The notes beneath the pieces were generated by a model, which was given only the letters and a program-made list of their open reading frames with translations, did no database searches and was not told where the DNA came from. Shown here piece by piece: positions 10,955 through 32,023 of a stretch of DNA of 36,353 nt (within the stretch, counting starts at the first letter, position 1; each line of letters opens with the position of its first letter). The stretch spans positions 1 through 36,353 of the forward strand of contig JAYTYM010000016.1 in assembly GCA_043742365.1 (NCBI GenBank), read 5' to 3'. The DNA comes from a bacterium. GTDB lineage: Bacteria > Patescibacteriota > Minisyncoccia > Phycocordibacterales > UBA6899. The translations under genes and the position numbers were made by a program.

Positions 10955-11485
10955 TTAAACATGACTGAGAATGAATTCTGCTCTCTCGTGCGGTGAAAGA
11001 ACGGGGACTACAGTCGGTGTGTATCCAAATTCCCTGTATGCATTAAACAGTGCCTGATGTATTGAGTCGCGATATTCAGCTGTCTCTTTTCTAACTTCAT
11101 CTGGCTCATATCCGGGCAAAAGTTCTAGGATGAAAACCTGCGCATAGCGCAAATGCGCGTCTTGATACGCATGCAGTGGCACGCTTACATTGCCCAACTT
11201 ACTGTACGCATAACTATCGAGTATTCCACGATCGAGGAATACTTTGTCGTCAGATAACGCAAATTCAAGCTCTGCCTGCTTCATAACGACTTTTTCTTGA
11301 AAAAGCGCGAGGTCTTTCCACGGCAACACATCACTCCCCTTTAACTGTTCTTCTTCAATGACCATGCGTGCTGTTTCAGGTACAACCGGATATCCTTTCG
11401 CTTTTAGAATATCAACGACTGTGGTTTTTCCTGTGAATGGACCGCCAGTGAGTACATACTTTTTAGTTACTCGTTTTGTAGTCAT
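10955..11485 (-). CDS. AAA_28/NadR-C-terminal-like P-loop ATPase
   Basis: Walker A GGPFTGKTT near the N-terminus, then VFLDRGILDSYAY. Start set at MTTKRVTKK (11485) to avoid overlap with msrB. Confidence 0.75.
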   Translation of the reverse strand: MTTKRVTKKYVLTGGPFTGKTTVVDILKAKGYPVVPETARMVIEEEQLKGSDVLPWKDLALFQEKVVMKQAELEFALSDDKVFLDRGILDSYAYSKLGNVSVPLHAYQDAHLRYAQVFILELLPGYEPDEVRKETAEYRDSIHQALFNAYREFGYTPTVVPVLSPHERAEFILSHV

Positions 11486-11492
11486 TTCCTGT

Positions 11493-11978
11493 TTAATCTG
11501 GGATAAATAGTAACGCCACCCCATTCATACACCATCGCTTGCCAAGAGGAGGAGGTCCATCATCAAAAACATGGCCCAAATGCGCGTGCGTGTCTGCCGT
11601 CAATACTTCAATGCGAGATACGCCGAGCTGTACGTCGTCCTTAAATATTACTGACTCCTTGCTTATCGGCTTAGTAAAACTTGGCCACCCTGTCCCAGAA
11701 TCAAATTTATCCTCAGAGCGAAAAAGAGGCAATCTGCTGTCTGCGCTTACGAAAGTACCCATACGATGTTCATTATTGAGCGAGCTTGTAAATGGCGCCT
11801 CAGTTCCAGATTGGTACATTACATAATATGCTTCCCTAGAAAGTCTCGAGCGTATATCGGTAGTGGTCGCGACAATATTCTTACTCAGCTCATGAGGAAA
11901 TACATAGGGTACGTAGCGATAGCTAAGAACGGCCAAAAACACTACTGCTGAGAATATGAGGGGTGTGTGTTTGGTCAT
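11493..11978 (-). CDS. msrB: Peptide-methionine (R)-S-oxide reductase MsrB with N-terminal membrane anchor
   Basis: GTGWPSF and HLGHVFDDGP..RWCMN motifs. The N-terminal TM segment is LIFSAVVFLAVLSY. No CxxC zinc pairs. Confidence 0.9.
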   Translation of the reverse strand: MTKHTPLIFSAVVFLAVLSYRYVPYVFPHELSKNIVATTTDIRSRLSREAYYVMYQSGTEAPFTSSLNNEHRMGTFVSADSRLPLFRSEDKFDSGTGWPSFTKPISKESVIFKDDVQLGVSRIEVLTADTHAHLGHVFDDGPPPLGKRWCMNGVALLFIPD

Positions 11979-12090
11979 GTGGTAAGTATAGAAAATTTGA
12001 TGGGCGAGAGAATTACTGATGATAGCTGCAGGTACTTTCGCTTAAGTTGGCGCAGTGGATATATTTCGAACCTGTTTGGTGGGCAAATGA

Positions 12091-13614
12091 CTATTGGAGA
12101 CTTAGTTTATATATTGAAACGAGGGTTGAAGATCCTACTTCCTTTGAGGTTTCAAAATACACGATGCCAGGGGTTGATTTGTTTTCAATAAAATTCCTCA
12201 CATCATACTCACCACTTACTTTTTTCTCATCGAAAAAAAGACTACCTTTTGCGGTTGGCTGTGGCTTGTCCAAGGCGATGTATGCAAGTTTCCCATCAAT
12301 ACTTTTTAGGGAGAAAGGATTGATAATTCCAGCCAGCTCTTTCTCGTCATAAAAGATGTGATTTTCTCTGGTTGAACTATCGTATTTTGAATATTCAAGC
12401 TTCCCAGCAATTTCACTAAATTGTGGAGGACTATCCATCTTTGTCTTCGCGACTAACCGACTTCCAAGGTAAAGTCGTGCTTCTTTGGAAGAGTAATCTG
12501 TTGCGAGATAGGCTGGCTTCCCCGTGGCCTCTATCAGTTTTGCGATACTATTAGCAGACTGAATCATGTTTCCATCGAAGTAAAGTTGCTGAGAATCCTC
12601 TGTCGTTTTACCACTGATGTAAGCGAGCTTCCCAGAAATTTTCCTTATCTCAATATTATATGATCCGTCTGCTGTAATTTTTTTTCCATCTTCAAAAAGC
12701 GTTTGAGTTGTAGGATATTCGCTTCCTAAGTATCCGCCAATATCCTTTGGTGGGGTTTTATCAACAAATGTGAGAGTAGTGTAGGCGAGTTTACCATTAT
12801 TCTCCTCTAGATAATCCGGTATCTCATATGCAGAGATGACTTCTTTTCCATTGAAATAGAGCGTATCGGTATTCGCAGAAAAATCATGAATTATATATGA
12901 TAGTCCTTTGCTGGTCATTTTGAAATTCTTTATGTCTTGCCCAGTTACAATTTTCTTTCCACCAAAAAACAATGTCTTCTGTTTTGAAGCTTTATCGTAG
13001 ACGGTATAGGCGAGTTTCCCATCTATTTCTTTAACGTCAAACATGTCAGTCAAGCTTGTAACAGGAGCGGTTGCGAGCATCTCTGTACCATAATAAAGTG
13101 AGTGGGCTAAGGATTTTGTGTCATTACTGATATACATAAGTTTCCCAGCCAATTCCTGCATAATAAAAACATTTTCAGTAATCTTTGCCTCGTTCAAGAA
13201 TAATGAATTACTAAGATTGTGTTTTATGGTGTATGCAATGTCACCAGTTGAAAGGAGTGCGGTTTCACCGAGATAAGTACCATTACGATCATTTGATTCC
13301 GCGAGTGTTTTTGCAGCTTTTGCGGGTATGGTTAGTGTCTTTACTAAAATTGGCTCAGGCGATTGAGGCACTCCCACGACTGGAGTAGCTGTACTTGCGC
13401 TACTACGATTAGTTGAGGATGACACGGACGAACCCGAAAGACCTGGCACAACTGCCGTAGTCCCTGATGCTTCTGGTTTAAGAGGTGAGCTCGAAGCAAA
13501 ATTGTTTACGATAGTAGTCGGATCATTGGTTAGAAAATAGCCTCCTGCTATTACGAGTGCAACCATAGACGTTCCAGCAGCGACAATCCAAAGTACTAAT
13601 TTATTTTGTTCCAT
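12091..13614 (-). CDS. Membrane-anchored repeat protein (about 9 repeats of roughly 45 aa centred on G-K-L-A-Y)
   Basis: N-terminal TM segment and a Ser/Thr/Pro linker. Repeats then follow: DGKLAYTVYD, NGKLAYTTL, SGKLAYISG, TGKPAYLAT, AGKLEYSKYD, DGKLAYIALD, AGKLMYISND. Confidence 0.8.
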   Translation of the reverse strand: MEQNKLVLWIVAAGTSMVALVIAGGYFLTNDPTTIVNNFASSSPLKPEASGTTAVVPGLSGSSVSSSTNRSSASTATPVVGVPQSPEPILVKTLTIPAKAAKTLAESNDRNGTYLGETALLSTGDIAYTIKHNLSNSLFLNEAKITENVFIMQELAGKLMYISNDTKSLAHSLYYGTEMLATAPVTSLTDMFDVKEIDGKLAYTVYDKASKQKTLFFGGKKIVTGQDIKNFKMTSKGLSYIIHDFSANTDTLYFNGKEVISAYEIPDYLEENNGKLAYTTLTFVDKTPPKDIGGYLGSEYPTTQTLFEDGKKITADGSYNIEIRKISGKLAYISGKTTEDSQQLYFDGNMIQSANSIAKLIEATGKPAYLATDYSSKEARLYLGSRLVAKTKMDSPPQFSEIAGKLEYSKYDSSTRENHIFYDEKELAGIINPFSLKSIDGKLAYIALDKPQPTAKGSLFFDEKKVSGEYDVRNFIENKSTPGIVYFETSKEVGSSTLVSIYKLSLQ

Positions 13615-13682
13615 CCTAAAATCATATCACACTAAAACTGAAAAATCCCTTGGTTGAGGGAGTTCTTGGTGAAGACTGAAGT

Positions 13683-13797
13683 TGGTCAGTAGGGAGAATC
13701 GATTCCCCGGCGCAAGTGAAGCAGCGACCAAAATCACTTGAGCGTAGCGATTTGAGATTGGAAGTACTCTTGTGGTGTTCACTTGCTTCCCGCACCA
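13683..13797. ncRNA. tRNA-associated structured element A (short form of element B at 24246..24487); strand unresolved
   Basis: The 46-nt core at 13720-13765 matches 24358-24403 at 44/46. It is enclosed by the 9-bp helix 13712-13720 / 13778-13786, which covaries with copy B. A T-arm-like hairpin GGGGAAUCGAUUCUCCC lies at one end. Confidence 0.5.
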
Positions 13798-13840
13798 ATA
13801 TAAAAAAATCCTCTAAAGGATTTTTTTATATTGGTGCGGG
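13789..13840. terminator. Long perfect hairpin that incorporates the CCA end of the preceding tRNA-like element
   Basis: cccgcaccaatataaaaaaatcc-tctaaa-ggatttttttatattggtgcggg, 23-bp arms. Confidence 0.6.
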
Positions 13841-13989
13841 ACGGGAGAATCGAAGTCACGAATCACTAAATCTTTTTCGCTTTGCTCAAAAGCTTAAGTG
13901 TTCTCGACCCCGGCGCGCCACCTCACAAAGCTTCGGTATGCCTTGCGCCCAGTTCGATTCTCCGGAAGCTATGCTTCCTCCGTCCTCGC
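13832..13989 (-). ncRNA. tRNA-Gly-derived minihelix-like element with masked T-loop and about 100-nt insert; ends ..GUCCCGCACCA
   Basis: The 3' end UUCGAUU-CUCCC-GUCCCGC-A-CCA equals the T-loop, T-stem and acceptor of the adjacent tRNA-Gly(UCC). The 5' end GCG(A)GGAC mimics the acceptor 5' strand. The hairpin GGAAGC-AUA-GCUUCC follows. GGAGAAUCGAA (13953-13963 on plus) is the exact complement of UUCGAUUCUCC (13844-13854 on plus). Confidence 0.55.
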
Positions 13990-13990
13990 A

Positions 13991-14037
13991 TCGACAGCAA
14001 CAAAAAACGGCACAATGCCGTTTTTTGTTGCTGTCGA
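13991..14037. terminator. Perfect 22-bp hairpin between tRNA-Gly(UCC) and the minihelix-like element
   Basis: tcgacagcaacaaaaaacggca-caa-tgccgttttttgttgctgtcga. Confidence 0.6.
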
Positions 14038-14038
14038 G

Positions 14039-14109
14039 TGCGGGACGGGAGAATCGAACTCCCACCAAGAGTTTGGAAAACTCCTATTCTACCATTAAAC
14101 TAGTCCCGC
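14039..14109 (-). tRNA. tRNA-Gly (anticodon UCC), CCA not encoded
   Basis: GCGGGAC-UA-GUUU-AAUGGUA-GAAU-A-GGAGU-UUUCCAA-ACUCU-UGGU-GGGAG-UUCGAUU-CUCCC-GUCCCGC-A. All four stems pair. Confidence 0.93.
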
Positions 14110-14130
14110 ATTATTTTTGATTTACTAAAG

Positions 14131-14384
14131 TTCACCAAGAGTTTGGAAAGGCCTGTAGGCACTTCCAAATTTATACTTACTGCGGTCGTTAAATTTTTAG
14201 GTCGGTGCGCGAAATGGGAATTTCGGCACACTTCCAAATTTATACTCCTTACAGGAGCTGTCCACTTATTGGGTCTTTTTCAAAAGCCCTCAATGAGTCT
14301 TACGGTGCGGGTCCCGTACCCACACCTCACGCTCTGCTCCTTAAATTTTAGGTCGCTCCCATTCTACCCTTAAACTAGTCCCGC
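14131..14384 (-). ncRNA. Promoter-proximal composite: a perfect tRNA-Gly 5' half (14355-14384) fused to about 220 nt of structured repeat modules, with no T-arm
   Basis: GCGGGAC-UA-GUUU-AAGGGUA-GAAU-G-GGAGC is followed by two CGACCUAAAA..UAUAAAUUUGGAAGUG modules. There is an 18-nt exact direct repeat at 14160-14177 and 14229-14246. A copy of the window-start module sits at 14258-14348. A 17-nt duplicate of the tRNA-Gly(UCC) anticodon/variable region lies at 14133-14149 (= 14063-14079). Confidence 0.5.
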
Positions 14385-14418
14385 ACTGACGTTCGGCTCA
14401 AACTTGAACGTGCTTCGT

Positions 14419-14447
14419 ATCCTAACAAATTGACATCCGATAGGCAA
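14419..14447 (-). promoter_or_regulatory. Candidate promoter for the minus-strand tRNA-Gly(UCC) locus
   Basis: On the minus strand: TTGCCT, 17-nt spacer, TAGGAT, about 34 nt upstream of the tRNA-like 5' end. Confidence 0.4.
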
Positions 14448-14494
14448 CGGGTAAAAATGATGTAAGAAGTACGTTAAATACGAAAGGGGTTGGT

Positions 14495-15286
14495 GTGAGT
14501 AAACGAAACACAGATGCAGGCTTGGCTAAATCTGTTGATAAAAATGCAGCTGCTTTCCGTATCTGCGCGAAGATATTTGAGTTTTGGCGATTAACCGAAC
14601 TTGAGTCTTCTCGCATGCTTAGGCTCAGTTATGAAGAGTGGCAAAGTGCAAAATGTGCACGATCTTTACCAGCAAAAGCACTTGATGATCTTTCGCGCAT
14701 ACTTTGGATAGCAAGACTATGTACGGATCTTTACCCGCTCGACAAAGAACTCAGCGTGGCATGGCTGCGCAAAAATATCTTTGAAGAACCATTTTGGGGC
14801 ATGTCACCGCTTTATTTTATGCTCTCGAAAAGTGAGGAGCCGCTCGCGAGAACGCATCGCTTTCTTGCTCTGAAATTTGATACATGGGGCGCCCTACGTG
14901 ATGAGCGCAATGAGCTCGTGTACTTAAACGATGAGTTGCGCATCAGCGATGAGCCTATCGATACACTTATGTGCATGGCACTTCGTGTAGCGCGGTCCTG
15001 GCAACTTTCTGCACAAGAAGAGCGAGGACTTTTGGGAACAGAGTTTTCTTCAAATTCTGATTGTAGGGGGTTGCGCCCCGACACGTTGGTCAAAGCACGA
15101 ATGATAGTCCTTATTGATCTTGTTCTCTGGCACATATTTCATGATGGCAATAAAGTCGCCGCATGGGTACGAGCAAACAATATGCATCCCCTTTTTGAAG
15201 AAAAATCGCCACTTCAATTGCTGTGTTCAGGCGATGTAGGGGTTATGAAAGTCGTTTATGCATACCTCCGCAACATTTCACCGTAG
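14495..15286 (+). CDS. Tandem-duplicated Xre-like/DUF2384 (MbcA/ParS-type) antitoxin-domain protein
   Basis: Two similar halves. Each ends in the DUF2384-like signature: WLRKNIFEEPFWGMSPLYFML and WVRANNMHPLFEEKSPLQLLCSGDVGVMKVVYAYL. GTG start with AAGGGG upstream. Confidence 0.7.
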   Translation: MSKRNTDAGLAKSVDKNAAAFRICAKIFEFWRLTELESSRMLRLSYEEWQSAKCARSLPAKALDDLSRILWIARLCTDLYPLDKELSVAWLRKNIFEEPFWGMSPLYFMLSKSEEPLARTHRFLALKFDTWGALRDERNELVYLNDELRISDEPIDTLMCMALRVARSWQLSAQEERGLLGTEFSSNSDCRGLRPDTLVKARMIVLIDLVLWHIFHDGNKVAAWVRANNMHPLFEEKSPLQLLCSGDVGVMKVVYAYLRNISP

Positions 15287-24245: not shown

Positions 24246-24487
24246 TGGTCGGCGTGCAGGGAATCGAAGCTTACTGCTTCAGTATACCTTTGCGATTTAA
24301 TCGAAGCATAACTCCTCATAAATACCGCAAAGCTCTTCGATTCCCTGGCGTGAGCAAAGCAGCGACCAAAATCTCTTGAGCGTAGCGATTAGAGATTGGA
24401 AGTGACCAATTCTTCTTTTGCGCTCATCCGCTTAGAAGAATGGAAATACTCTCGTGGTGACTCTTGTGGTGTTTACTCACTCATCCC
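24246..24487 (-). ncRNA. tRNA-Pro-like CCA-ended structured element B (long form of element A)
   Basis: Ends CUUCGAUU-CCCUG-CACGCCG-A-CCA (C1:G72-type, Pro-like). A 13-bp perfect inverted repeat cagggaatcgaag (24257-24269) / cttcgattccctg (24335-24347) masks the T-loop. The 46-nt core at 24358-24403 is shared with element A. The helix 24350-24358 / 24472-24480 covaries with A. Confidence 0.55.
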
Positions 24488-24490
24488 CCC

Positions 24491-24531
24491 CCAAAAATAA
24501 AAAGTCCCCCAAAGGGAGACTTTTTATTTGG
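24491..24531. terminator. Hairpin overlapping the CCA end of tRNA-Pro
   Basis: ccaaaaataaaaagtccccc-aaa-gggagactttttatttgg. Confidence 0.6.
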
Positions 24532-24602
24532 TCGGGCTGCAGAGAATCGAACTCTGACCTCATGCTCCCAAAGCAAGCATACTACCACTATACTACAGCC
24601 CG
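24529..24602 (-). tRNA. tRNA-Pro (anticodon UGG), CCA encoded
   Basis: CGGGCUG-UA-GUAU-AGUGGUA-GUAU-G-CUUGC-UUUGGGA-GCAUG-AGGU-CAGAG-UUCGAUU-CUCUG-CAGCCCG-A-CCA. Confidence 0.92.
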
Positions 24603-26647: not shown

Positions 26648-26737
26648 TGGGGATAAAGCTGTGCACAGTGGGGATAAAGGACAACTCCCAATTTTGTAAA
26701 CTGTCCTTTATAAACAGTATCCACAGGTTTATCCACA
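26648..26737. promoter_or_regulatory. Cluster of four DnaA-box-like 9-mers
   Basis: TGGGGATAA at 26648-26656 and at 26669-26677 (1 mismatch each, one orientation). GTATCCACA at 26717-26725 (1 mismatch). TTATCCACA at 26729-26737 (perfect, opposite orientation). Confidence 0.5.
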
Positions 26738-26794
26738 TAATTGTGCATAACTCTGATTTAGGTGGCAAAAACTGCCATTTAGGTAGTTATTTAG

Positions 26795-26940
26795 TGGTGC
26801 GGGCAGATAGAATCGAACGCACAAGTTACTTAGTATTTTGACGCAAGAGCCTTAAAAATACTAAGTATCCGCGGTCCCACCTCGCTATCTTACAGAGCTT
26901 CGATATAGCTCCGGTCAGTTCGATTCTTCCGTCCCGACGC
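26795..26940 (-). ncRNA. tRNA-Gly-derived minihelix-like element (homolog of 13832..13989); ends ..UGCCCGCACCA
   Basis: The 3' end UUCGAUU-CUAUC-UGCCCGC-A-CCA has the acceptor of the adjacent tRNA-Gly(GCC). AGAAUCGAAC (26918-26927 on plus) complements GUUCGAUUCU (26809-26818 on plus). It shares GAAUCGAACUG, CGAAGCU.UGU.AG and GAGGUGG with the 13.9-kb copy, plus a homologous long hairpin with changed sequence. Confidence 0.55.
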
Positions 26941-26988
26941 AGGCACAAAACAAAAGAACAAGCATTCAGCTTGTTCTTTTGTGTGCCT
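26941..26988. terminator. Long hairpin between tRNA-Gly(GCC) and the minihelix-like element
   Basis: aggcacaaaacaaaagaacaagc-attca-gcttgttcttttgtgtgcct. Confidence 0.6.
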
Positions 26989-26989
26989 G

Positions 26990-27060
26990 TGCGGGCAGGG
27001 AGAATCGAACTCCCATCTTAACCTTGGCAAGGTCATGTTCTACCATTAAACCATGCCCGC
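26990..27060 (-). tRNA. tRNA-Gly (anticodon GCC), CCA not encoded
   Basis: GCGGGCA-UG-GUUU-AAUGGUA-GAAC-A-UGACC-UUGCCAA-GGUUA-AGAU-GGGAG-UUCGAUU-CUCCC-UGCCCGC-A. Confidence 0.93.
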
Positions 27061-27190
27061 AAATAATTTTTTCTTCAAAGACGGCTTTTCGATGGGAGAA
27101 CTTCCAATTCTTACTACTTTCGATCTTGGAATTTAGGTCGCCCCCACTTAGCTCAGCAAAGTTCATATTTTACCATCAAACCATGCCCGC
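27061..27190 (-). ncRNA. Promoter-proximal composite: tRNA-Gly 5' half mimic (27161-27190) plus a CGACCUAAA..UUGGAAGU module, with no T-arm
   Basis: GCGGGCA-UG-GUUU-GAUGGUA-AAAU-A-UGAAC is followed by about 60 nt and then GUUCU, which closes the anticodon-like stem. The module (27098-27140) is flanked by the helix UGGGGG / CUCCCA. Confidence 0.5.
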
Positions 27191-27200
27191 ATGTCGTCAT

Positions 27201-27229
27201 ATACTATCGAATCTTCATTAAAATGGCAA
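27201..27229 (-). promoter_or_regulatory. Candidate promoter for the minus-strand tRNA-Gly(GCC) locus
   Basis: On the minus strand: TTGCCA, 17-nt spacer, TAGTAT, ending about 10 nt before the tRNA-like 5' end. Confidence 0.45.
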
Positions 27230-27306: not shown

Positions 27307-27378
27307 GCTCTCGTAGTGAAATGGATATCACGACTGCCTTCGAAGCAGTTATTCCAGGTTCGAATCCTGGCGGGAGCA
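27307..27378 (+). tRNA. tRNA-Arg (anticodon UCG), CCA not encoded
   Basis: GCUCUCG-UA-GUGA-AAUGGAUA-UCAC-G-ACUGC-CUUCGAA-GCAGU-UAUU-CCAGG-UUCGAAU-CCUGG-CGGGAGC-A. Confidence 0.93.
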
Positions 27379-27513
27379 CAGCGAGTCTTCGAGTTGGCTC
27401 CCGAGGAGCTGAACTGCTTCAGCTCCGACAGGATTCGAAAGACTTTTCGTTGACGATTCCTAGAGTCCGAAAAGTACCTGCCGATGTAATCGGAGAATCC
27501 TGGCGGGAGCACA
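27379..27513 (+). ncRNA. tRNA-Arg-derived minihelix-like element bounded by a 19-nt direct repeat of the tRNA 3' end
   Basis: gaatcctggcgggagcaca occurs at 27362-27380 and 27495-27513. The insert carries GCUCCCG (27397-27403, complement of the acceptor 3' strand) and the hairpin GGAGCUGAA-CUGC-UUCAGCUCC. It also carries CAGGAUUCGAA (27429-27439), the exact complement of the T-loop/T-stem at 27359-27369. Confidence 0.55.
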
Positions 27514-27557: not shown

Positions 27558-27760
27558 GAGACAGAGTATGTTTTGTTCAGCAGAACGAAACAACGAGTCG
27601 GGGTCGCGGAAATTTTCGAGTGAAGACGAGAAAATTATCTGTGACCTGCGCCCAGATCTCACATATCATAGAATTTCTGACATAACGTTTTAAATGAGGC
27701 CCTTTATGGGCGCTCCTATTTAATGAATTGAGCTTTTGATGACATAATACTATTATCCTC

Positions 27761-29245
27761 ATGCCCCACTTCACCATTCCTGACGAGATAAAAAACATCA
27801 CCAACACCCTACAAAGTGCTGGATTTGAGGCGTACCTCGTTGGTGGGTGCGTGAGAGATCTTTTACGCGCAACTACTCCTAAAGACTGGGATGTGACGAC
27901 AAATGCGAATCCCGAACAGATAATATCCTTATTCACTAAAACATTTTATGAAAACGAATACGGAACAGTGGGTGTGGTTAATGAGTCAATATCTGAGGAC
28001 GAGACAGAAAAACTTTCATTGCGGGTAGTAGAAATTACGCCCTATAGAAAAGAAACTACTTATAGCAACTTTCGTCATCCCGATGAGGTGGTCTTTTCCG
28101 GAAATCTGCATGATGATCTTATGCGCCGCGACTTTACCATGAACGCCATCGCGTATGATGTGAAAAATAATGAGCTTGTTGACCCATACGACGGTCAGGG
28201 TGACATAAAACGTCACTTAATTCGCACTGTGGGAAAGCCTAAAGACCGTTTTAACGAAGATGCTCTGCGCATTATGCGCGCTGTTCGTTTTGGTGCTGAA
28301 CTTGGTTTTGTCATAGAAAAAGAGACCATGGACGCGATAGTCTTGTTCGCACCTCGACTTGAGACTATCGCGGGGGAGCGTCTACGGGATGAGTTCACGA
28401 AGATAATCATGTCAGAACGACCAATGGAAGGGATTATCATGCTCGAACGAACAAAAACCCTCAAATATATCCTGCCTGAGCTTGAACAAGGTCTTGCATG
28501 CGAGCAAAATGGCGACCACATTTATGATGTGTGGGAGCATAACCTCCGCGCACTGCAGCATTCTGCAGAACGAAAGTGGCCGCTGCATGTACGCATTGCA
28601 GCGCTCTTACATGACATTGGGAAGCCTGCGACTCGCAAATGGTCAGAAGAAAAACGCGACTGGACGTTCTATGGTCACGACGTTGTCGGCGGGAGAATGG
28701 CAACGAAGATCCTTGAGCGCCTGCGTTTTCCGAAGCAATTCATTCATGATGTCTCAACGCTCGTGCGCTATCATTTATTCTTTTCTGATATTGAAAAAAT
28801 AACTCTCTCAGCTGTTCGTCGCATTGTTTCTAATGTTGGACCTGAATTAGTATGGGACCTTATGAACGTGCGGGCGTGTGACCGTATTGGGATGGGCAGG
28901 CCAAAGGAAACTCCATATCGATTACGTAAATATCATTCAATGATTGAAGAGGCGATGCGAGACCCTATATCAGTCGGAATGATCAAGCTTGATGGTCAAA
29001 AAATAATGCAAATTACAAAAGAGAGTCCGAGCCCGAGAATCGGCTGGCTCTTGCATGCACTTTTTGAAGAGGTGCTCGAAAATCCCTTATTGAACAGCGA
29101 GGAATATTTGACCGCCCGCACTATAGAACTCGCAAAAGACGACCCTGAGGTACTAAAAAAACTCGGCGAGGCAGGGAAAGAAAAAAAGGATGAGAAAGAG
29201 CAGGGAGAGGTGAATGCAATTCGACAAAAATATCGTGTTAAATAA
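27761..29245 (+). CDS. cca: tRNA nucleotidyltransferase (CCA-adding enzyme family) with HD domain
   Basis: GGCVRDLLR..DWDV polymerase-beta head, RDFTMNA, and HD motif AALLHDIGK. Confidence 0.9.
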   Translation: MPHFTIPDEIKNITNTLQSAGFEAYLVGGCVRDLLRATTPKDWDVTTNANPEQIISLFTKTFYENEYGTVGVVNESISEDETEKLSLRVVEITPYRKETTYSNFRHPDEVVFSGNLHDDLMRRDFTMNAIAYDVKNNELVDPYDGQGDIKRHLIRTVGKPKDRFNEDALRIMRAVRFGAELGFVIEKETMDAIVLFAPRLETIAGERLRDEFTKIIMSERPMEGIIMLERTKTLKYILPELEQGLACEQNGDHIYDVWEHNLRALQHSAERKWPLHVRIAALLHDIGKPATRKWSEEKRDWTFYGHDVVGGRMATKILERLRFPKQFIHDVSTLVRYHLFFSDIEKITLSAVRRIVSNVGPELVWDLMNVRACDRIGMGRPKETPYRLRKYHSMIEEAMRDPISVGMIKLDGQKIMQITKESPSPRIGWLLHALFEEVLENPLLNSEEYLTARTIELAKDDPEVLKKLGEAGKEKKDEKEQGEVNAIRQKYRVK

Positions 29246-31084: not shown

Positions 31085-32023
31085 CTATTGCCGACGTTTG
31101 TCGTGAAACTGTTTATGAATGTCCCTGAGTTTGCTATCGGTCACATGTGTATAGATCTGTGTGGTTGCAATATTTGCATGTCCGAGCAATGCCTGCACCG
31201 AGCGCAGGTCAGCACCATTTTCAAGAAGGTCTGTGGCAAAGCTGTGGCGAATAACATGAGGAGTAACCTTTTTAGAAATACCTGCTTTAACTGCGTAATG
31301 TTTCACGAGGCGTTCCACAGATCGCGGCGTCAGTCGCAGATCTCCCTTTTTGGTCGCAAGAGTTTTTACTCCACCTCGACCGATCTGAATGAATAACGCA
31401 CTATCTACATCTGTCCTTTTGTTTAAGTACAGTTTGAGTGCGTTCTTGGCTGTCTCTGACAAAAAAACCACGCGTACTTTTTCGCCTTTTCCACGTACGG
31501 AAAATTGATCACGCGTCAGGTCAAGGTCGCGTGGAAGTCCACACAACTCTGAGACACGCAGTCCAGTTGAAAAGAAAAGCTCAAGTATGGCGCGGTCTCT
31601 AAGTGCAGGAAGCATCTCTCCTTGTGGGGCATTCAATAGTCGCGTCAGGTCTTGAGACGAAATAAGGTCGAGTTCTCGCTCTGATGCTTTCGCGAGCTCA
31701 ATACGTTCAGGCGACATGACCGAAACCCCTTCGCGCGAAAGATATTTGAGAAATGCGCGCAGGGCAATAAGGTAGTAATTCTGGGTGCGCTTCTTCAGCG
31801 TATCTGATGCAATGCCACGCTTAGAAACGCGTGCATTCTGGCGATTAAGCCACAGTCGATACTCACGCACTATTTCAAGAGTTATTTTCTCTGGGTCCGT
31901 GAGTTTCGTGTGTTCGATGAATCGAGAAAGATAGTGATCATAATTAATGACGGTTTTAAGGCTTCTGCCTTTTTCGATCTCGATGTATTCAAGAAAGCGT
32001 CTTTTCCATTCAATGAGATTCAT
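31085..32023 (-). CDS. Tyrosine site-specific recombinase, XerC/XerD-like
   Basis: N-terminal SAM-like domain. C-terminal catalytic motifs: LRVSEL (Arg), HVIRHSFAT, LLGHANIATTQIYTHV (Tyr). Confidence 0.9.
   Translation of the reverse strand: MNLIEWKRRFLEYIEIEKGRSLKTVINYDHYLSRFIEHTKLTDPEKITLEIVREYRLWLNRQNARVSKRGIASDTLKKRTQNYYLIALRAFLKYLSREGVSVMSPERIELAKASERELDLISSQDLTRLLNAPQGEMLPALRDRAILELFFSTGLRVSELCGLPRDLDLTRDQFSVRGKGEKVRVVFLSETAKNALKLYLNKRTDVDSALFIQIGRGGVKTLATKKGDLRLTPRSVERLVKHYAVKAGISKKVTPHVIRHSFATDLLENGADLRSVQALLGHANIATTQIYTHVTDSKLRDIHKQFHDKRRQ

Follow-up and report, generated by a model that had tools for sequence, protein, structure and literature searches.

The DNA stretch analyzed here, hereafter the window, comprises 36,353 nucleotides (nt; contig JAYTYM010000016.1 of assembly GCA_043742365.1) and harbors an intact tRNA-Gly(UCC) gene bordered on both sides by sequences that resemble the ends of a tRNA. 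The contig is chromosomal and was placed within the Patescibacteria/Paceibacterota by homologs of the CCA-adding enzyme and other markers; among the genes of the window are those of RNase Y, PNPase, CheA and the CCA-adding enzyme. An earlier description made from the letters alone, below called the sequence-only reading, had regarded the locus as a nested or "shattered" tRNA. Here, the locus is shown to contain one live tRNA-Gly(UCC) among three non-coding units derived from the same tRNA. The gene in the middle is the only working tRNA, and the outer pieces are self-contained and not complementary to each other. Furthermore, the same unit architecture flanks the Gly(GCC), Pro and Arg tRNA genes of the window as well as many tRNA genes in other Paceibacterota.

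ARAGORN and Rfam agree on four tRNA genes in the window (Table 1), and all four bear tRNA-derived flanking units. The tRNA-Gly(UCC) gene is followed directly at its 3' side by CTCGAC, without an encoded CCA, and the identical tRNA sequence is present in many Paceibacterota contigs. An encoded CCA is missing from three of the four tRNA genes of the window, and several of the pseudo 3' ends have one.

The pieces listed by the sequence-only reading for the Gly(UCC) locus were all recovered on the minus strand, with coordinates that are exact or off by 1–2 nt. This includes the intact tRNA without CCA between the outer pieces, the exact 17-nt duplicate of its anticodon-loop/variable region and the 22-bp perfect hairpin, called hp1 here. 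The layout is real, non-random and recurrent. Counting sites with up to 2 mismatches, the window contains 12 occurrences of a T-arm-like 12-mer, TTCGATTCTCCC, against a shuffle mean of 3.35, and none of 100 shuffles reaches this count.

Known RNA families do not account for the flanks. At gathering scores, the Rfam scan of the window yielded no family besides tRNA. Permissive scans of positions 13400-14700 (E <= 10), of the locus L042 from a relative (600-2300, E <= 5) and of L044 returned no credible family for the first two and solely hairpin-driven microRNA and small-RNA noise throughout. The Rfam tRNA model finds nothing at the Gly(UCC) locus at E <= 10 beyond the intact gene. The sequence-only reading knew of no described bacterial arrangement of this kind, and this stands: no Rfam family was assigned and a full-text literature search found no description of such tRNA-flanking units.

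Table 1. Features at the tRNA loci of the window, with the basis on which each was assigned
Feature	Position	Strand	Basis
tRNA-Gly(UCC)	14039-14109	-	ARAGORN; Rfam tRNA 66.7 bits
Promoter-like TTGCCT-17 nt-TAGGAT	14419-14447	-	Read from sequence; 8/12 consensus positions
Upstream unit, dead tRNA-Gly(UCC) copy with hairpin modules	14110-14384	-	Alignment to L047 tRNA; fold
Copy of tRNA positions 1-30 (acceptor 5' strand, D arm, GGGAG)	14355-14384	-	28/30 identical
Module copy 1a, rcA family, split by nested hairpins	14229-14355	-	End motifs and fold
Degenerate T-stem 3' strand and acceptor 3' strand, TTCCC ATT TCGCGCA CC	14204-14220	-	Sequence reading
Module copy 1b, rcA family	14147-14207	-	Covariance model R1, 41.6 bits, E = 1.2e-9
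17-nt duplicate of anticodon-loop/variable region	14133-14149	-	Exact repeat of 14063-14079
hp1, 22-bp perfect palindrome, terminator-like core (CGGCA UUG UGCCG, then U6)	13991-14037	.	Inverted arms, perfect over 22 bp
Unit E, 158-nt rod	13832-13989	-	Fold and ortholog alignment
hp2, 25-bp perfect palindrome, terminator-like, includes CCA of unit E	13788-13841	.	25-nt arms, 100% complementary
Unit 2, tRNA-like remnant	13683-13800	-	Fold z = -2.39
rcA module in unit 2 hairpin, strand opposite tRNA	13722-13779	+	R1 72.1 bits, E = 6.7e-19
tRNA-Pro	24529-24602	-	ARAGORN, Rfam
tRNA-Pro downstream unit, same architecture	24246-24490	-	Three-way alignment; R1 65.8 bits
tRNA-Gly(GCC)	26990-27060	-	ARAGORN, Rfam
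Gly-GCC upstream unit, pseudo-tRNA-Gly(GCC)	27061-27190	-	rcA module 27086-27143, R1 56.1 bits
Gly-GCC downstream unit E2, paralog of E	26795-26940	-	Fold z = -4.39
tRNA-Arg(UCG)	27307-27379	+	ARAGORN, Rfam
tRNA-Arg downstream unit	27396-27512	+	Conserved in L006, L007; 10 compensated pairs

Upstream of the gene, a candidate promoter is present as described before; it stays below the promoter-scan threshold. The promoter region is ~95% identical in L047, the closest relative, where a bare tRNA comes directly after it, and the Gly-GCC locus has a counterpart (TTGCCA-17-TAGTAT, 27201-27229). In the window, the promoter is followed by the upstream unit; its initial 30 nt can be aligned with nt 1-30 of the real tRNA that L047 has behind the same promoter. 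This 5'-half copy had been called perfect, which the two mismatches contradict. Its GGGAG leads straight into a hairpin module of the family named rcA below. This copy, 1a, ends in CGACCTAAAATTT (14343-14355) and AATTTGGAAGT (14230-14240), and part of the sequence nested within it is homologous to an insertion in a pseudo-tRNA of L042. A second copy of the family, 1b, is recognized by the covariance model.

Part of the upstream unit had been described as structured repeats without a T-arm. These repeats are two module copies of a defined family, and we read positions 14204-14220 as the degenerate 3' end of the dead copy (10 of 12 positions match CTCCC G TCCCGCA). In the minimum-energy fold, CGCGC (14206-14210) pairs with the UGCGG of the 5' end, and the 5' end of the unit closes on this degenerate 3' strand (z = -2.27). 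Since the 5' piece has its own degenerate T-stem/acceptor 3' strand, the distant 3' piece is not needed as its partner. At the place of the ancestral tRNA, the upstream unit forms a dead copy whose T-loop position is filled by two ~55-nt rcA modules.

Downstream of the gene, hp1 lies within 38-nt inverted arms that extend into the tRNA 3' end. The adjoining unit E folds into a rod with a minimum free energy of -70.9 kcal/mol (z = -6.1). Its 5' arm, GCG(A)GGACGG...GGAGAATCGAAC, is the reverse complement of the acceptor 3' strand, the T-stem 3' strand and the T-loop of the tRNA and pairs with the terminal copy ...TTCGATTCTCCCGTCCCGC, leaving the ACCA single-stranded. The interior consists of a GGAAGC hairpin, a conserved core and a hairpin termed B-type. 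At the 3' end of the rod lies the 23-nt copy of the tRNA 3' end, TTCGATTCTCCCGTCCCGCACCA (13832-13854), which ends in ACCA and is identical at 23 of 24 positions in direct-repeat register. Hence the 158-nt element does supply a tRNA 3'-end copy with CCA, as had been stated. The T-loop attributed to it is not one, since these letters are fully paired with the antisense arm of the same element (GGAGAATCGAA, 5' end of E) and sit inside a duplex. Orthologs of E were found in L037 and L042, and a paralog, E2, within the window.

The second palindrome, hp2, had been given as 23 bp and is slightly longer. It leads into unit 2, the "Element A" of the sequence-only reading, which is made up of CGGGAA, a hairpin, a palindromized T arm GGGGAATCGATTCTCCC and TACTGACCA; its ortholog in L037 carries a different cargo within the T arm. 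In both E and unit 2, the 3' strand of the outer stem copies the last ~23 nt of the tRNA and the 5' strand is complementary to it. The proposal that the two outer pieces hold partners for all four tRNA stems therefore fails: each piece pairs inside its own unit, and GGAGC/GCUCC, taken for the anticodon stem, is actually the stem of a hairpin nested in the repeat module.

The recurrence around tRNA-Gly(GCC) reported earlier was confirmed (26795-27190). The upstream unit is a pseudo-tRNA in which the acceptor 5' strand, the D arm and the T stem are retained and the anticodon arm is mutated; an rcA module sits exactly at the T-loop position. On the other side, a hairpin (26941-26989) precedes E2, which folds like E and is ~56% identical to it; its arms are mixed, the 5' arm being of the UCC type and the 3' arm of the GCC type. 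The unit downstream of tRNA-Pro has a cargo of a long hairpin and a GAAGC-AGUAA-GCUUC hairpin, and contains an rcA module (24360-24417, plus strand) with a nested, diverged module-like copy of 55 nt. The tRNA-Arg unit has a perfect 7-bp acceptor-like stem (GCTCCCG/CGGGAGC), a hairpin, an anti-T-loop and cargo, and it also copies the tRNA 3' end. Beyond a bidirectional terminator lies a hairpin of the B type, GGGGTCGCGGA...ATCTGTGACC (27600-27646, plus strand), homologous to the one inside unit E. A k-turn in the B hairpin was considered and discarded, as the GA pairs are not conserved and a plain helix with G.U pairs is found. The gene of the CCA-adding enzyme (27761-29245, plus strand) adjoins the Gly-GCC/Arg tRNA cluster.

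The architecture is not limited to the window. Among the collected Paceibacterota loci, a reverse-complement copy of the tRNA's own T-loop and T-stem 3' strand (up to 1 mismatch in 12 nt) lies within 450 nt downstream of 18 of 51 tRNAs and upstream of 0 of 51. The loci were collected via module or tRNA-Gly patterns, and most of the counted tRNAs were incidental to these patterns. The positive cases belong to Gly, Arg, Asn, Val, Met, Trp, Leu and Pro, and several tRNAs also have a distal direct copy of the 3' end or an upstream copy of the 5' end. The arms of the units track the neighboring tRNA, as seen for GCGGGTA/TACCCGC in L049 and for the anti-T-loop ACUUGAA facing a UUCAAGU T-loop in L010.

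The hairpin module shared by these units deserves separate attention. The upstream units contain the motif GCGACCUAAA...UUGGAAGU, which corresponds to the core of unit 2 in reverse complement. A search with the core pattern through one representative genome per species (185,579 species) returned 25 loci, all in Patescibacteria except one chance match in coding sequence; in viral contigs, the module core had no match. The covariance model R1, which was built from these loci, detects 37 copies in 330 kb of collected sequence. Four of these lie in the window, namely the module of unit 2, copy 1b, the module of the Pro unit and the minus-strand module of the Gly-GCC upstream unit. In an alignment fitted to the covariance model, which favors pairing scores, 96.2% of the cells are paired in comparison to 88.5% in shuffles, and 9 of 13 pairs change on both sides. 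On four of five measures none of 500 shuffles reaches the observed value, and on the remaining one, the count of further pair types, a single shuffle of 500 does so. Alignments slid as a control are at most 41% paired. The rcA module is a structured motif family with covariation support that is found only in Patescibacteria. Its unpaired bases are invariant across genera.

The unit of this family measures 53 nt (CGACC...GTGGTG). Its boundaries are set by exact head-to-tail tandem copies in two unrelated Paceibacterota genomes (L025 5799-5909 and L032 920-1030) and, as a second line of evidence, by the hairpin loop of the Pro unit, which can be compared in its empty and filled state. There, the module and its nested copy form a 108-nt insertion, and the hairpin is uninterrupted in L006 and L008. 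The insert has neither target duplication nor terminal inverted repeats. In 22 of 26 copies, a G directly precedes the module on its 5' side, without a clear target motif.

Of the 37 copies, 18 lie within 400 nt of an intact tRNA, where ~4.4 would be expected from the fraction of tRNA-near sequence, a four-fold enrichment. These copies are mostly downstream of the tRNA (16 of 18) and on its strand (14 of 18); modules away from tRNAs have no orientation preference with respect to the flanking genes. No transposase or integrase was found in ten open reading frames (ORFs) neighboring such non-tRNA copies, and the neighbors are housekeeping genes. A short contig of a more distant relative (L004 360-600; L005) contains GAGAATCGAAC-type and GGGATTCGAAGC...GAAGCTGTAAGCTTCGAAACTCCCTG units, and no tRNA was detected there within ~2 kb.

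The comparison of relatives is informative for the history of the units. L047 (89% amino acid identity in PGM) has the same Xre-like gene, promoter and leader as the window. Here, the bare tRNA-Gly(UCC) is followed by an unrelated terminator, and the upstream unit, E and unit 2 are all absent. L049 (77% amino acid identity, with PGM synteny) possesses an E-like unit with arms that fit the tRNA of L049 itself. L037 and L042, which carry the E orthologs, are two contigs of a relative with ~81% amino acid identity, and in this relative the block of tRNA, E and unit 2 is located at a different genomic place. L042 displays the full layout together with two upstream pseudo-tRNAs, one with an insertion in the D-loop and one with an insertion in the T-stem. 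The Gly-GCC locus varies likewise: it is empty in L006, has a different unit in L007, with the native 3' flank included in the distal copy of the tRNA 3' end, and its tRNA is inverted and bare in L008. The upstream unit of this locus is absent from L006 and L007, and E2 from L006, L007 and L008. Units that are present, absent or different among relatives indicate that they are gained, lost and exchanged on short time scales. As independent assemblies carry units, an assembly chimera is unlikely.

The units are not parts of a split tRNA. Taken together, we favor the explanation that they are tRNA-anchored structured repeats whose origin, spread and loss are due to recombination at stretches that match the tRNA exactly; in our judgment, the grounds for believing and for doubting this explanation are about evenly balanced. 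Of the three explanations offered by the sequence-only reading, a tRNA-targeting mini mobile element comes closest to it. The presence and absence of units among relatives of ~89% protein identity, the 53-nt module inserted in a hairpin tip and the lineage-confined, tRNA-enriched module family agree with such an element. The units would originate as duplicated tRNA segments. Their movement and loss would proceed by tandem duplication or by Campbell-type or illegitimate insertion via direct repeats of tRNA ends of 23–35 nt, and this is about the repeat length that host homologous recombination needs. Recombination at tRNA-identical stretches would always leave one intact tRNA and would require no dedicated integrase, with tRNA sequences acting as the best-conserved anchors between diverged genomes. 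The hairpin tips (T-loop and arm loops) would then be colonized by the 53-nt module, without target duplication or terminal inverted repeats, and the stems would perhaps be kept or extended through fold-back copying. The proximal inverted copy could derive from a fold-back extension of the terminator palindrome or from a palindromization of the T arm as in unit 2, and this is the weakest step.

Several points weigh against this explanation. No enzyme, no circular form and no clean pair of empty and filled E sites at one orthologous position was obtained, and the synteny downstream of the array in L047 differs from that of the window. A simple Campbell insertion leaves the proximal inverted copy unexplained. 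The locus sample is biased by the patterns used for its collection. Furthermore, the conserved cores of E and the Pro unit, the conserved unpaired bases of the module and the excess of G.U pairs fit a functional RNA at least as well. To be weighed along with these is the occurrence of modules in both orientations relative to tRNAs and genes, which is odd for a strand-specific RNA and fits insertion at the DNA level.

A functional RNA is indeed the first alternative to be considered. Here, the units would be expressed structured RNAs of a new class, beneficial to the host and built on a tRNA scaffold, with functional internal hairpins (rcA, B and GUAA-loop hairpins). An acceptor/T-stem-like helix, often ending in ACCA, would allow processing and stabilization by RNase P and 3'-end enzymes, and the internal hairpins could be, for example, protein-binding sites or decoys for tRNA-binding factors. 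We consider this a possibility to be held tentatively, and it and the favored recombination scenario are not mutually exclusive. It draws on conservation. The first 96 alignment columns of E, at its 5' side, are 90.6% identical between the window and L037, that is, between genomes of ~81% amino acid identity, and the neighboring terminator-like hairpins are much less alike, hp1 being only ~58% identical to its equivalents in L037 and L042. The cargo of the Pro unit is similar in this respect, being about as conserved as tRNA-Pro itself across three genomes, the insertion aside. In the E alignment, 12 of 57 consensus pairs show a compensatory change, and the compensated pairs of the Arg unit occur among three close genomes. 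G.U outnumbers A.C on the tRNA strand by 39:4, 14:2 and 9:2, a result that is biased by the prediction of the pairs on that strand and for which a mutational asymmetry may also be responsible. The E-like architecture with fitting arms in the 77% relative L049, the invariant unpaired module bases and the preference of tRNA-associated modules for the tRNA strand point in the same direction.

These signals have a second reading, as compensatory changes in near-perfect palindromes can result from templated correction instead of selection. Judged from the alignments, the cores of E and of the Pro unit appear to be under sequence and structure constraint, either as selfish elements constrained by their own propagation or as transcribed structured RNAs. 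Against expression for the benefit of the host stand the absence of units from the closest relative at Gly-UCC and from L006 at Gly-GCC, as well as the position of units behind terminator-like hairpins with no room for an own promoter. The acceptor-like pairing has decayed in the Pro unit, in unit 2 and in the E of L042. Only about half of the copies have a CCA, the paired T-loop letters leave no tRNA elbow, and E and the other flanking units are not recognized by the Rfam tRNA model.

A more far-reaching possibility would be an undescribed class of tRNA-scaffolded RNAs in Paceibacterota, located immediately downstream and sometimes upstream of tRNA genes. A helix taken over from the acceptor and T stem of the adjacent tRNA, often with ACCA, would close each of them and lead to its maturation by tRNA enzymes. 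They would bind conserved partners via their modules (rcA, B-type and GUAA-loop hairpins) and would be spread among tRNA genes and genomes without an integrase through homology arms by host recombination. We regard this as rather doubtful.

It is also conceivable that islands or phages repeatedly integrated site-specifically at tRNA genes and were excised again, leaving the direct 3'-end copies as attL/attR scars, with the short units as deletion remnants comparable to integrase-less cis-mobilizable elements. The 23/24-nt repeat of the tRNA 3' end does flank an insert at Gly(UCC), direct repeats sometimes reach into the native 3' flank (L007 and the Pro locus of L008), and a synteny break lies downstream of tRNA-Gly(UCC), with different genes in the window, L047 and L049. 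On the contrary, the inserts measure only 150–330 nt, with 204 nt between the Gly(UCC) repeats, and no integrase lies between or beside the repeats; the sole tyrosine recombinase of the window is a syntenic Xer-like gene (31085-32023) 17 kb away. The homology breakpoint in the T-loop varies among units, and a crossover in the T-loop would leave a T-stem 5' strand, which is missing from the distal copy. The proximal inverted copy, the upstream 5'-end duplicates and the conserved structured cores are unexplained by such scars, which we therefore consider improbable.

A cis-regulatory leader/trailer system, which had also been suggested from the sequence, would require that the proximal antisense copies pair with the tRNA ends in the precursor and that the distal sense copies compete, tuning folding or processing. 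The symmetry of the arrangement, with distal direct and proximal inverted copies on both sides (L014 and the window), would suit this, as would the downstream anti-T-arms of the census and an upstream unit that is necessarily co-transcribed from the conserved promoter. The idea is nevertheless weakened to the point of being very improbable: some close relatives have identical tRNAs without units, terminator-like hairpins stand between the tRNA and the downstream antisense arm, and the unit content varies by locus.

Finally, a split, permuted or multiply interrupted tRNA-Gly paralog whose outer pieces are joined as RNA can practically be dismissed. All that speaks for it is that sequences able to supply acceptor, D and T stems are present in co-linear order. 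The self-contained pieces offer no anticodon arm and no free T-loop, have no match to a group I intron or another splicing-related Rfam family, enclose an intact, identical tRNA and are absent from the closest relative. They are also decaying, with two changes among the 30 nt of the 5' copy and degeneration of the 3' strand.

Some narrower candidates were tried and rejected as well. A group I intron did not fit, as no Intron_gpI match was obtained in 13400-14700 or in L042 600-2300 and the insertions are located at the T-loop or D-loop. For a phage origin, blastn of the locus against phage records matched only cyanophage tRNA-Gly; a 19-mer of E matched three viral contigs with two distinct sequences, which are high-GC phage coding or adjacent regions with a fold z of 0.18 and were judged chance matches. 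The resemblance to GAAUCGAAC and the ACCA end had raised the possibility that E is similar to transfer-messenger RNA (tmRNA). ARAGORN found no tmRNA in the window and the Rfam scans gave no tmRNA match, E has only 158 nt, and there is no conserved tag frame; the single short frame checked in the E core (GCA..UGA) is lost in L037, ORFs not having been searched for systematically. A retro-copy origin of the CCA-bearing copies was discarded, since CCA is encoded by some genuine tRNA-Gly genes of this lineage (L039, L049) and a single base separates it from the CAAT of related flanks. A miniature inverted-repeat transposable element was discarded, too, as E-type arms change with the neighboring tRNA and the 53-nt module lacks terminal inverted repeats and target duplication.

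Among known systems, several resemble the units in part. REP/REPIN sequences with their RAYT and the palindromes derived from IS200/IS605 are short (tens of nt), multi-copy, intergenic and strand-specific hairpins without terminal inverted repeats or target duplication, often near terminators. The rcA module shares the lack of both hallmarks, the strand-specific hairpin and the many copies. It differs in being nearly invariant across candidate genera, four-fold enriched at tRNAs and arranged in exact head-to-tail tandems, and the sole comparison of a filled and an empty site places the copy in a hairpin tip. In addition, no Y1/HUH transposase or RAYT was found among 10 module-neighboring and 10 window ORFs that were scanned.

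Rickettsia palindromic elements and the hairpin repeats of sponge mitochondria (PMC2800124) are small selfish repeats that invade compact genomes, including positions in or beside RNA genes, and are tolerated since they extend helices. The units differ in lineage and sequence; furthermore, a live tRNA is neighbored here by the hosts, namely dead copies of it and hairpins with tRNA-derived arms, and conservation of the cores is strong. When an integrase uses a tRNA gene as its target, the inserted DNA comes to lie between direct repeats of the tRNA 3' end, an intact tRNA is regenerated and the neighborhood is variable. All three features are found here, but the inserts are small, no integrase is present, and an extra inverted 3'-end copy, 5'-end duplications and a varying T-loop breakpoint are foreign to att duplications. 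The tRNA-like domain of tmRNA, external guide sequences of RNase P and stable RNAs of phage T4 have an acceptor-like end helix with an ACCA-type tail and are tRNA-adjacent. The closing helix of unit E with its single-stranded ACCA beside a tRNA is similar to such minihelices or guide sequences; in contrast to these, its T-loop sequence is buried in a duplex, and CCA and acceptor pairing are not conserved among units. In archaea and red algae, split or circularly permuted tRNA genes consist of pieces that lie apart without an intact copy and that have complementary leader/trailer sequences and a bulge-helix-bulge for the archaeal/eukaryal splicing endonuclease (PMC3978253, PMC4033280). The locus described here, in contrast, includes an intact gene, and its pieces are incomplete and pair with themselves.

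The finding is explained in kind, not in mechanism. The "shattered tRNA" is one case of a feature that is apparently widespread in genomes of Paceibacterota and the Candidate Phyla Radiation, where tRNA genes anchor small structured non-coding units made of the tRNA's own ends. For annotation, this matters in that pseudo-tRNA pieces and spurious ORFs are called over unit regions. Furthermore, tRNA loci are hot spots of gain, loss and synteny breaks here without a recognizable integrase, and two motif families at least, the rcA module and the E core, are supported by covariation and have no counterpart in Rfam. Should the units be expressed, nature would have its own version of the engineered tRNA scaffolds, and RNA biology would gain a handle in organisms not yet culturable alone.

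The surroundings of the Gly(UCC) array add some minor observations. The genes flanking the array encode a 507-amino acid protein without Pfam match and the Xre-like protein. Distal to the array, synteny with L047 and L049 is broken over 10955-13614, where the window has three minus-strand genes, for an AAA_28 protein, a 161-amino acid ORF and the 507-amino acid protein; on this side, L047 has other genes, and in L049 an HU gene abuts the array. Homologs of the 507-amino acid protein lie in glycosyltransferase clusters elsewhere. An attempt to follow synteny via this gene was abandoned, as its homologs are in other contexts without tRNAs. A spurious public gene call of 149 amino acids covers the tRNA-Gly/E region in L008 7308-7757, the same DNA as L037 1-450. 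Directly downstream of the Gly-GCC/E2 locus, five DnaA-box-like sites (TTATCCACA, up to 1 mismatch) are clustered in 103 nt (26648-26750). This cluster is also kept in L006, L007 and L008 and may, from its sequence, be an oriC-like or DnaA-regulated region.

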